Positions 9,845 to 11,782 of a stretch of DNA of 18,749 nucleotides are shown here, one piece after another. Positions within the stretch are counted from its first letter, which is position 1, and the number at the start of each line of letters is the position of its first letter. The position numbers were made by a program, and so were the translations under genes. The DNA lies in IMG/VR virus record IMGVR_UViG_2703718769_000007. One strand, 5' to 3'. This stretch comes from a virus. Its lineage: Duplodnaviria > Heunggongvirae > Uroviricota > Caudoviricetes. Under the pieces are notes generated by a model. It saw nothing but the letters and a program-made list of their open reading frames with translations, made no database searches and was not told where the DNA came from.

Positions 9845-11782
9845 TCAGCCGCCGGACGCACTGCCGTAATTCACACCAGTGATCACCGCCACCGCCGCGG
9901 TACGGCGACGACGCCAGTTGATCCAGCGCTCCGCACGGATGGCCACGCTGCCTGTCTGGAACATGGAAACCAGCTCCACCGGCGACGGCGTGGTACTGTC
10001 GCCGGTCGGCTCAGACTGCATTTCCAGTGATGCCTCGCGGGACATATCCACTGCCACGCCGCCGTCATCCGCCAGATAAATATCCGGGGCATTCACCAGC
10101 ACCAGCTGGTCACCCACGTACTGGGAGACAATCACCGGCAGCCCCTGGAAGGAGCCACCCAGCAGGGTCATGTCCGGGTATTCTTTCTGACCCAGCGCAT
10201 TTTTACGCATGGACAGTGCAAGGGCATTTGTGCTGGACATCAGCCAGACCGCACCGGTGGGCTGCAGGTTTGCTGCCACAAACTGTCCAAACGCAGCCTC
10301 TGCATCCGCATCCGGGTTACCGGTTGATGCCGTGCCCTTCACATCATGGGTGATGGACGCCGGGGAGACATCTGCCACTGCGGCTTTTTTCGGGTCCACA
10401 AAGTCTGTATCCAGACGCGCCACCACCGCTTCCGCCAGCGCATTACGGACCAGTGCATCAGCAGCCGGACTGGAAAAACGGATCAATTCTTCCGTCAGTA
10501 CCGCAATGGCCGACACCTTCGCATGACTGAAGGTGATGGATTCAAAATCAAACTTCGTCAGGGGTTTTGCCTTACCCTCACCCACCCAGCCGGCAGCACC
10601 GCCGGACACCTGGGCGTGCACACGGATATTGAACGGCACGTGACGAAGTGCAGGGATCCCGCCCTGACCAAATCGCCCGATAATGGTCTGAGGACGCAGG
10701 TAATCAATAAAGTCCTGTGCGTATTCCTGATATTCAGACAGGCTGCCTGCCCACTGCGGATCCGTGGTGGTCCCCGCGCCCACTGCCGATTTCAGGACAT
10801 GATGCAGACGACTGTCATCCGGATACTGACGACGGGCCACTTCCAGGGCTTCAGAGCGGACACCTTTAGCCGCAGCCAGTGATTTGGCAAAACGTGCGAA
10901 ACCAATCCCCTTATCCAGTTTCTGCTCCACACGGATCACCGGCGCAGAAGCCACCGCGGCCACATTCCCGTTACCGGCCTGTTTCACCGGCTGCGCCGTG
11001 GCGGCCTTACCGGCTTCCAGTTCACGCAGGCGCTTCAGGTGCGCATCCACCTGACGGATTTCCGCTGCGGTGTTGTCGTAATGCTCTTCCTCCTCCACAT
11101 CCAGCGTGCGCCCTTCCTCTGCGGCTTTGGTCATGACCTCCTCAAGGGAGGCTGCCAGCGCTGCACGCTTGTTTTCAAAACTTTTAATCTGTTCGCCAAT
11201 ATTCATTATGGTCTTTTCCTTATGAAAAACGGTTGTTGACTGTGCCGCAGCGCCGGCAGAAGATGCGATTTTCACCACCGGTTTCCGGTTGCCGGACGCG
11301 GCAGAAAACTGGCGGTCGTAAGATTTAATGGTCCGGATGGTGCATTCCGCATTCGCGGGCACGGTGACGGCAGACACCTCCATCAGTTCCCAGCGCAGAA
11401 AATGCAGTCCGCCTCCGTCCAGAAAGGTGTATTCATGGGGACGGAAGCCCACGGACAGTCCCCTGACCAGCCCGGTCTTAATGGCCGCCCAGGCCTCATC
11501 CAGTCGGGCTGCCAGTTGCGATGGCATATCCGGCACAGGCTTCGCCAGTGTTGCCGTGATTTCCAGCCCTTCGCTGACCCGGCGCACCGTACACTGCCCC
11601 ACCGGGCGGGAATGGTCATGCTGCCAGAGAAACGGGATCGCACTGCCAAACTCCGCGCCCTCCGGCTCCAGGATGTCACCATCCCGATCCGGAGAAGGCG
11701 TTGACGCAATCCCGGTGATCACCCGCTCATCCTCACTGAAGGATTTCACCGTCAGCAGGGAGCAGGCCCGTTTAAGAGTCAC
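9845..11782 (-). CDS. Prohead protease (HK97 gp4-like, peptidase S78/U35) fused in frame to HK97-fold major capsid protein
   Basis: 645-aa continuous ORF. N-terminal ...SFSEDERVITGIASTPSPDRDGDILEPEGAEF...LWQHD...EVSAVTVPANAECTI is protease-like. A central charged coiled-coil segment (MNIGEQIKSFENKRAALAASLEEV...) looks like a delta/scaffold domain. C-terminal ...DFIDYLRPQTIIGRFG...VSMFQTGSVAIRAERWINW is capsid-like. Start is GTG at 11782, 5 nt after AGGAGG. Confidence 0.85.
   Translation of the reverse strand: MTLKRACSLLTVKSFSEDERVITGIASTPSPDRDGDILEPEGAEFGSAIPFLWQHDHSRPVGQCTVRRVSEGLEITATLAKPVPDMPSQLAARLDEAWAAIKTGLVRGLSVGFRPHEYTFLDGGGLHFLRWELMEVSAVTVPANAECTIRTIKSYDRQFSAASGNRKPVVKIASSAGAAAQSTTVFHKEKTIMNIGEQIKSFENKRAALAASLEEVMTKAAEEGRTLDVEEEEHYDNTAAEIRQVDAHLKRLRELEAGKAATAQPVKQAGNGNVAAVASAPVIRVEQKLDKGIGFARFAKSLAAAKGVRSEALEVARRQYPDDSRLHHVLKSAVGAGTTTDPQWAGSLSEYQEYAQDFIDYLRPQTIIGRFGQGGIPALRHVPFNIRVHAQVSGGAAGWVGEGKAKPLTKFDFESITFSHAKVSAIAVLTEELIRFSSPAADALVRNALAEAVVARLDTDFVDPKKAAVADVSPASITHDVKGTASTGNPDADAEAAFGQFVAANLQPTGAVWLMSSTNALALSMRKNALGQKEYPDMTLLGGSFQGLPVIVSQYVGDQLVLVNAPDIYLADDGGVAVDMSREASLEMQSEPTGDSTTPSPVELVSMFQTGSVAIRAERWINWRRRRTAAVAVITGVNYGSASGG

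Follow-up and report, generated by a model that had tools for sequence, protein, structure and literature searches.

The DNA considered here, IMG/VR record IMGVR_UViG_2703718769_000007 (Caudoviricetes), is a stretch of 18,749 nucleotides (nt) that we refer to as the window. On its minus strand a single open reading frame (ORF) at 9845-11782 encodes an HK97-type prohead protease, a delta or scaffold-like segment and a major capsid protein in one polypeptide, and carries an in-frame ATG preceded by a Shine-Dalgarno-like motif. We are close to certain that this is a real fused protease-delta-capsid gene, and it is a genuine late gene of a lambdoid (BP-4795/Marienburgvirus-like) Escherichia coli prophage. 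A first-pass annotation had described the 645 codons without internal stop, leaving the strand unstated, the GTG start 5 nt after AGGAGG, and the internal ATG with AAGGA upstream. All are present in the sequence, and the features of the locus are as follows.

11795-11821, minus strand: terminator-like hairpin (GGACCGCTGCGGCGGTTT) followed by a T-run, lying after the terL stop and before the ribosome-binding site of the fused gene (scan match 11821-11804 plus T tail)
11788-11793, minus strand: Shine-Dalgarno AGGAGG of the full-length product, with spacer CTGAT, 5 nt to the GTG; direct sequence reading
11782-11780, minus strand: GTG start of the full-length product, read from the sequence
9845-11782, minus strand: fused ORF, 645 codons and stop (TGA at 9847-9845), 69.0 kDa; protease, linker, delta/scaffold segment and major capsid protein
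11315-11782, minus strand: HK97-type (S78) prohead serine protease domain, approximately residues 1-156 (Pfam, TIGR01543, BLASTP to HK97 gp4, AlphaFold)
11618-11620 and 11453-11455, minus strand: catalytic His55 and Ser110, respectively, from alignment with HK97 gp4
11207-11314, minus strand: variable, disordered, basic linker, residues 157-192, isoelectric point 11.2 (alignment variability; AlphaFold confidence 31-35)
11217-11221, minus strand: internal Shine-Dalgarno-like AAGGA, with a 10-nt spacer to the ATG of codon 193
11204-11206, minus strand: internal in-frame ATG, codon 193 (Met193, MNIGEQ...), proposed start of a nested delta-capsid product of 453 residues (48.2 kDa)
10790-11206, minus strand: delta/scaffold-like segment, residues 193-331 (AlphaFold helices; TIGR01554 aligns from residue 204)
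10787-10792, minus strand: predicted maturation cleavage site between Lys331 and Ser332
9848-10789, minus strand: predicted mature HK97-fold major capsid protein, residues 332-645 (314 residues), 33.1 kDa (PF05065, Foldseek)
9811-9828, minus strand: GC-rich palindrome GGGAGGCG-CA-CGCCTCCC, 17 nt past the stop of the fused gene and ahead of the next small ORF; sequence reading

Domain structure and known relatives

Both domains named in the first-pass annotation score above their Pfam gathering cut-offs. Residues 48-153 match PF04586 (Peptidase_S78) with 34.1 bits (cut-off 21) and residues 386-635 match PF05065 (Phage_capsid) with 53 bits (cut-off 24.2). The NCBIfam model TIGR01554, for the HK97-family major capsid protein and including the delta region, aligns with residues 204-584 (77.8 bits, cut-off 27.5). 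TIGR01543, for the HK97 prohead protease, aligns with residues 48-154 at 46.6 bits, under its equivalog cut-off of 59, and membership of the protease is therefore at the level of the Pfam family and not of the equivalog. PHROG 617 gives an end-to-end profile match, with residues 1-639 on positions 7-626 of 626 (E = 5.6e-261).

A BLASTP alignment of residues 1-192 with HK97 gp4 (E = 1e-8) places Ser110, in the motif GLSVGF, opposite gp4 Ser114, while His55, in WQHD, adjoins gp4 His65, one position off in the pairwise alignment. Duda and co-workers are said to have shown in 2013 that His65 and Ser114 are the catalytic residues of gp4. When the query is aligned with 150 cluster representatives, all 145 homologues bearing the protease domain have histidine at position 55, and 144 of the 145 have serine at position 110. 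The Pfam and TIGR01543 matches and the pairing of Ser110 with Ser114 bear out the first-pass view of the protease as HK97-type (S78) and not ClpP. For the capsid half, BLASTP against HK97 gp5 is not significant (E = 0.32), and kinship is therefore visible only at the level of profile and fold. A sequence search of the Protein Data Bank gave one marginal match only, to the Bxb1 capsid (E = 0.002).

The AlphaFold (AF2) model, built on 105 homologues, has a mean predicted local distance difference test (pLDDT) value of 71.9, with 70-91 in the capsid domain; a shallow alignment of 17 sequences gave 40.7 and was unusable. The parts of the model are listed.

Residues 4-139: beta-rich domain, pLDDT approximately 70-85
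Residues 151-192: disordered, pLDDT approximately 31-35
Residues 195-223 and 229-261: two long helices, pLDDT 82-90
Residues 264-286: second disordered stretch
Residues 293-329: three short helices
Residues 331-334: dip in confidence
Residues approximately 355-640: well-predicted domain

Foldseek matches the last of these to the HK97-fold capsid proteins of Bxb1, Muddy, D3, HK97 and T5, with E values of 3e-15 to 1e-9 and a target-normalised TM-score of up to 0.74. Searches with the whole model are dominated by capsid matches; the protease fold is assigned from sequence. The helical middle part of the model agrees with the earlier suggestion of a delta/scaffold-like segment, and the TIGR01554 and Foldseek results bear out that of a capsid protein, of HK97 fold, at the C-terminus.

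HK97 gp4 and gp5 together show the same protease family with the same catalytic serine, a delta scaffold at the N-terminus of the capsid protein and the same capsid fold. In HK97, however, the protease and capsid protein come from two genes with a stop between them, where the window has a linker of 36 residues in place of the stop. The delta segment has 139 residues in the window as opposed to 103 in HK97, and the order relative to the portal gene also differs. In the window the capsid gene lies ahead of the portal gene, unlike in HK97 or lambda.

The hairpin upstream of the fused gene is conserved in enterobacterial relatives. The palindrome at 9811-9828 is without a T-run and was not called by the terminator scan. 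Putative terminators are annotated on both sides of HK97 gp4-gp5, and hairpins flank the fused gene likewise; by analogy, the matching positions in the window and HK97 suggest that the capsid message is processed or stabilised by a conserved arrangement.

A comparison with the Salmonella phage Gifsy-2, made in the first-pass annotation, is apt. Effantin and co-workers reportedly described the tripartite capsid gene of that phage in 2010. As in the window, a protease, a scaffold-like middle and a major capsid protein share one ORF of a lambdoid prophage. In contrast to the window protein, that of Gifsy-2 has a ClpP-like (S14) protease and a capsid domain of a different family, and the Gifsy-2 fused gene comes after the portal gene rather than before it. 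Gifsy-2 belongs to a separate family of ClpP-type fusions, NF045540 ('ClpP-like prohead protease/major capsid protein fusion protein'), with a score of 949.6 bits. PMC12315714 cites the Gifsy-2 protease and coat genes as fused.

The window protein itself was rejected as a member of NF045540, to which it has no match, and of NF045541 ('prohead protease/major capsid protein fusion protein', scaf_prot_MCP2), for which it scores 53.5 bits against a cut-off of 525. Only residues 48-287 match the latter, on model positions 50-294 (E = 1.6e-14). The N-terminal protease and coiled-coil part of NF045541 is homologous to the window protein, but its capsid half is Gifsy-2-like and not TIGR01554-like, because Gifsy-2 matches model positions 179-630. 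There is also a weak match to PHROG 4523 (E = 3e-11); hosts and sequences are distant though the annotated architecture is equal, with protease, scaffold and capsid in one gene.

The fusion is already known and annotated. GenBank AJ556162 gives ORF56 of phage BP-4795 as 'putative major head protein/prohead protease', other records have 'major head protein/prohead protease', and the Joint Genome Institute (JGI) name for homologues is 'HK97 family phage major capsid protein/HK97 family phage prohead protease'. With the fusion annotated in public records, the main observation of the first-pass annotation is therefore not novel. The current RefSeq name, from the Prokaryotic Genome Annotation Pipeline (PGAP), is 'phage major capsid protein' only, and hides the protease part. 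Annotation pipelines and capsid-size predictors that use capsid protein length would be misled by a 'capsid protein' of 645 residues, the mature form of which probably has about 314.

Distribution of the fused gene

The fusion is a common head gene of long-tailed Shiga toxin (Stx) phages and other lambdoid prophages. Over the full 1938 nt the DNA is 96.7-98.6% identical, with an uninterrupted frame, in 93 phage records, mostly of Stx1a-, Stx2c- and Stx2a-converting phages and including BP-4795, 2851, YYZ-2008, JLK-2012 and 1717. The gene is also given as 98-100% identical to its counterparts in BP-4795, phage 2851, YYZ-2008 and numerous Stx1a/Stx2c phages. It has 2971 occurrences in complete E. 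coli genomes, spread over 1255 of the 5426. Homologues of 644-648 residues with 73-78% identity occur in Salmonella, Enterobacter, Klebsiella, Serratia, Kosakonia, Pantoea and others. Single uninterrupted ORFs with 33-47% identity are present in Alphaproteobacteria (Reyranella, Chelatococcus and a metagenome-assembled genome (MAG) of Rhodobacterales) and Betaproteobacteria (Burkholderiaceae, Candidimonas), and a Mesorhizobium ORF is open as far as the end of its contig.

A second search, seeded with the Chelatococcus protein, added 120 fused proteins from Rhizobium, Sinorhizobium, Agrobacterium, Methylobacterium and Devosia. HMMER, run exhaustively over 1.84 billion cluster representatives, gave 1202 matches below 1e-30, and both halves are present in approximately 144 of the best 150 representatives (50%-identity clusters).

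Seventeen loci from Gamma-, Alpha- and Betaproteobacteria were read for continuity, and the frame is uninterrupted in 14. The remaining three are L015, which runs off its contig; L014, a Snodgrassella prophage with separate protease and capsid genes; and L016, which has another gene order. In L016 (Parasphingorhabdus MAG, 2911-4709) a capsid ORF of 353 residues without a delta segment is followed by an overlapping protease ORF of 283 residues bearing a C-terminal helical extension. Here the two genes stand in reverse order and meet the same assembly need in another way.

The genomic setting is also conserved. BP-4795 ORF56 (AJ556162), Gp17 of phage 2851 and their counterparts in YYZ-2008 and Stx2 phage 1717 are the same gene with the same neighbours. 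The order terS, terL, fused gene, small ORF and portal is shared by the window, where the block spans 8269-14097 on the minus strand, BP-4795, and three alphaproteobacterial prophages from Methylobacterium, Sinorhizobium and Devosia (L100-L102). The small ORF has 73 residues and belongs to PHROG 829, of unknown function.

Might the continuous frame be an artefact, with a stop lost through sequencing error, or might the gene be a pseudogene decaying in a cryptic prophage? Database proteins of odd length, such as P0001 (1079 residues) and P0003 (784 residues), show that local assembly or frameshift artefacts do occur in the region. Against this, the same frame of 644-648 codons recurs in independent assemblies by the thousand and in Stx phages that are inducible and form plaques, and the catalytic and capsid residues are conserved. 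The error in a stop that the first-pass annotation wished to see excluded is countered by the same frame in phage records, bacterial genomes and distant loci. Such breadth of conservation rules out sequencing error or a pseudogene, explanations that we regard as having practically no chance of being correct.

A proposed internal start at codon 193

The first codon of the delta segment is strongly constrained. Met193 is invariant among 17 enterobacterial homologues, although the 25 or so residues ahead of it vary more, and are richer in indels, than any other part of the protein. When the ORFs from Alpha- and Betaproteobacteria are added the sole exception is a valine, encoded by GTG, in L008. 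The set of 145 fused representatives, drawn from 50%-identity clusters and mutually no more than approximately 50% identical, has methionine at this position in 129, valine in 12 and leucine in one.

A Shine-Dalgarno-like motif accompanies the codon. Residues -5 to -3 in the fused representatives are enriched in K, then K/E/G, then G/E, the residues that a sequence AAG-GAG-GGN would encode. At the DNA level AAGGA, AAAGGA, CAGGA or AAGGAGGG lies 6-10 nt ahead of this codon in 15 of 15 fused sequences. Three more loci, from Alphaproteobacteria, bring the divergent set to 18, and every one of these, like each of 32 distinct junction sequences obtained from 80 IMG/VR loci, has AAGGA or an AAGGAGG-like motif at a distance of 6-11 nt. 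In the three added loci the pairing of the internal motif with the anti-Shine-Dalgarno sequence is no weaker than that of the motif at the 5′ start. The internal motif occupies all three codon phases, being read as K-E, K-G, T-G or K-E-G, which speaks for a constraint on nucleotides rather than amino acids. Where glycine is read the codon is always GGA, which serves for only four of the 51 glycines in the window ORF.

When every alignment column was scored as a hypothetical start, the junction ranked third of 619 for mean Shine-Dalgarno duplex energy, and the other top columns are without a start codon following. The site sits in 40 nt of AT-rich, weakly folded sequence (GC fraction 0.33 compared to 0.59 for the ORF; rank 22 of 1898 windows). 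Most relatives have a similar rank for weak structure at the junction, although L009 does not.

Unfused relatives place a gene start at the same point. In the Snodgrassella prophage the protease ORF stops after 234 residues, and the capsid ORF starts 23 nt later with MTIEEQINAVKAK, homologous to MNIGEQIKSFENK, at a methionine homologous to Met193. The stretch that follows the protease domain there is longer than the 36-residue linker of the window protein. Five capsid-only representatives (P0201, P0230, P0255, P0258 and P0266) begin at positions equivalent to residues 193-196. The gene has a conserved internal in-frame start codon with a putative ribosome-binding site at a domain boundary, a combination expected of a nested gene pair.

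Nested in-frame protease/scaffold genes are represented by lambda C/Nu3, UL26/UL26.5 of herpes simplex virus 1 (HSV-1) and gp17/gp17.5 of the archaeal virus HFTV1; the long product has the protease, and the shorter, C-terminally identical product is the assembly protein made in bulk, which fixes the stoichiometry and keeps the protease tethered (bioRxiv 10.64898/2026.09.13.751334). In these three viruses the nested product is a free scaffold, whereas in the window gene it would, to judge from conservation, be the delta-capsid protein itself. No sigma-70-like promoter came up inside the gene in a scan of 9400-12100. A separate internal transcript of the UL26.5 type was dropped for this reason, and the second product would therefore come from internal translation initiation.

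Taken as a whole, we lean towards a proposal in which the fused gene is translated from two in-frame starts, in the manner of lambda C/Nu3 or UL26/UL26.5. Initiation at the GTG at 11782 would yield the 69.0-kDa protease-carrying form (protease, linker, delta and capsid), and initiation at the ATG at 11206, from its own Shine-Dalgarno motif, a 48.2-kDa delta-capsid form like HK97 gp5. The two would co-assemble via their common delta and capsid parts, in a ratio that we infer to favour the shorter form. The protease would thus enter the procapsid by covalent tethering and not by a C-terminal targeting tail of the kind that, reportedly in the same work of Duda and co-workers, directs gp4 into the HK97 shell. 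After closure of the shell the protease would cut off its own domain together with the linker and the delta segment, probably after Lys331, to leave a capsid protein of approximately 33 kDa that would expand on DNA packaging.

The cleavage position is predicted from several indications. In 151 sequences position 331 is lysine in 130 and arginine in 18, and position 332 is alanine, threonine, serine or glycine; model confidence dips at 331-334; and a weak local BLASTP alignment (E = 5) sets HK97 gp5 residue 107 opposite residue 340 of the window protein. HK97 gp5 is cleaved between Lys103 and Ser104.

At the full-length start GTG is seen only in the window and BP-4795. All other relatives with a readable 5′ start have ATG, with a similar AGGAGG or GGAG motif. 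The GTG could lower the proportion of the protease-carrying form in the E. coli phages.

Several points weigh against translation from two starts. No protein-level or ribosome-profiling data on the fused gene in BP-4795-like phages were found in the literature searched. The upstream AGGAGG is strong, and elongating ribosomes would cross the internal site and could occlude it, and a spacer of 10 nt, as in the window, is among the longer ones for E. coli. The sequences compared are phylogenetically related and the counts therefore overstate the number of independent events. Methionine to valine is also a conservative exchange, and 11 of the 12 valine codons are unread at the DNA level. The upstream K-E-G or K-G residues could be conserved as protein, for example as a cleavage site, and the capsid-only representatives, which come with no genomic context, could be gene-calling artefacts on truncated contigs.

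A rival reading is that only the fusion is made, each subunit then being a 69-kDa polyprotein with protease and capsid in a 1:1 ratio, and the internal ATG and Shine-Dalgarno motif being a relic of a two-gene ancestor or the result of conservation at the protein level. A 1:1 ratio is the usual assumption for genes of the Gifsy-2 type. The strength of the upstream Shine-Dalgarno motif, and an upstream start that is ATG in most relatives, are in keeping with this, and the unfused relative shows that the internal ATG was formerly the start of a gene. The lumen would be 35-54% filled if all subunits carried the 36-kDa extension, a rough estimate that assumes T=7 and an inner radius of 200-230 Å; this is crowded yet not impossible. 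Genomes of 55-62 kb may, however, point to T=9, as in D3. A relic, however, should decay in a hypervariable linker at 32-47% identity, but the start codon alternates only between those for methionine, valine and leucine, and the Shine-Dalgarno motif is still there in three codon phases, always with the rare GGA codon. We consider a fusion-only gene possible but doubtful. The internal AGGA might instead be an elongation pause site, allowing the protease to fold before the delta segment emerges, with Met193 kept for structural reasons. The motif does lie exactly at the domain boundary, after a disordered linker. Pausing by Shine-Dalgarno-like sequences is disputed, and it leaves unexplained both the restriction of the next codon to start codons (methionine, valine or leucine) and the unfused relatives and capsid-only proteins that begin exactly there. 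A role in pausing therefore appears most improbable.

We return to translation from two starts. There is, in our estimation, a reasonable probability that the whole family of S78-protease/HK97-capsid fusions, well over 100 50%-identity clusters across Proteobacteria, consists of nested two-product genes in which protease-free subunits would co-assemble with a protease-tethered minority; here too the argument is from sequence conservation. This would extend the principle of lambda C/Nu3 and the herpesvirus UL26/UL26.5 genes to the major capsid protein itself, and would give bacterial viruses a counterpart of UL26/UL26.5 whose nested product is the shell protein. It would explain how fusions escape a 1:1 load of protease and give a simple, testable account of protease dosage in a very large family of phage heads. 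A nested start for the fused family is not stated in the literature that could be searched.

Gifsy-2 also has a candidate internal site. In the fused gene of that phage (L099, NC_010393, 22471-24561) an in-frame GAGGAG, a spacer of 8 nt and an ATG occur at codon 221, directly after the protease domain. Nested starts may be general in protease-capsid fusions.

Other observations in and around the window

In some database entries the fused head protein is continuous with TerL or portal domains, or has approximately 440 extra N-terminal residues (P0001, P0003, and P0123 and P0133 with approximately 1090 residues). These joins are probably frameshift or assembly artefacts.

After the portal gene, at 7211-8272 on the minus strand, an ORF of 353 residues matches 'portal protein' PHROGs, phrog_1289 over its full length and phrog_2271 at positions 622-859 of 859; Pfam gives only a weak match, to CBM_5_12. 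The BP-4795 gene in this position is ORF59, with 461 residues. The ORF looks like a portal-adjacent protein of unknown role that is length-polymorphic and sometimes fused to the portal.

The region 4272-5904, also on the minus strand, contains an ORF for a major tail protein of 312 residues, with a C-terminal immunoglobulin-like region that matches 'Hoc-like head decoration' PHROGs. Next comes a tail assembly chaperone pair, ORFs of 140 and 93 residues, of the kind usually joined by a programmed frameshift.

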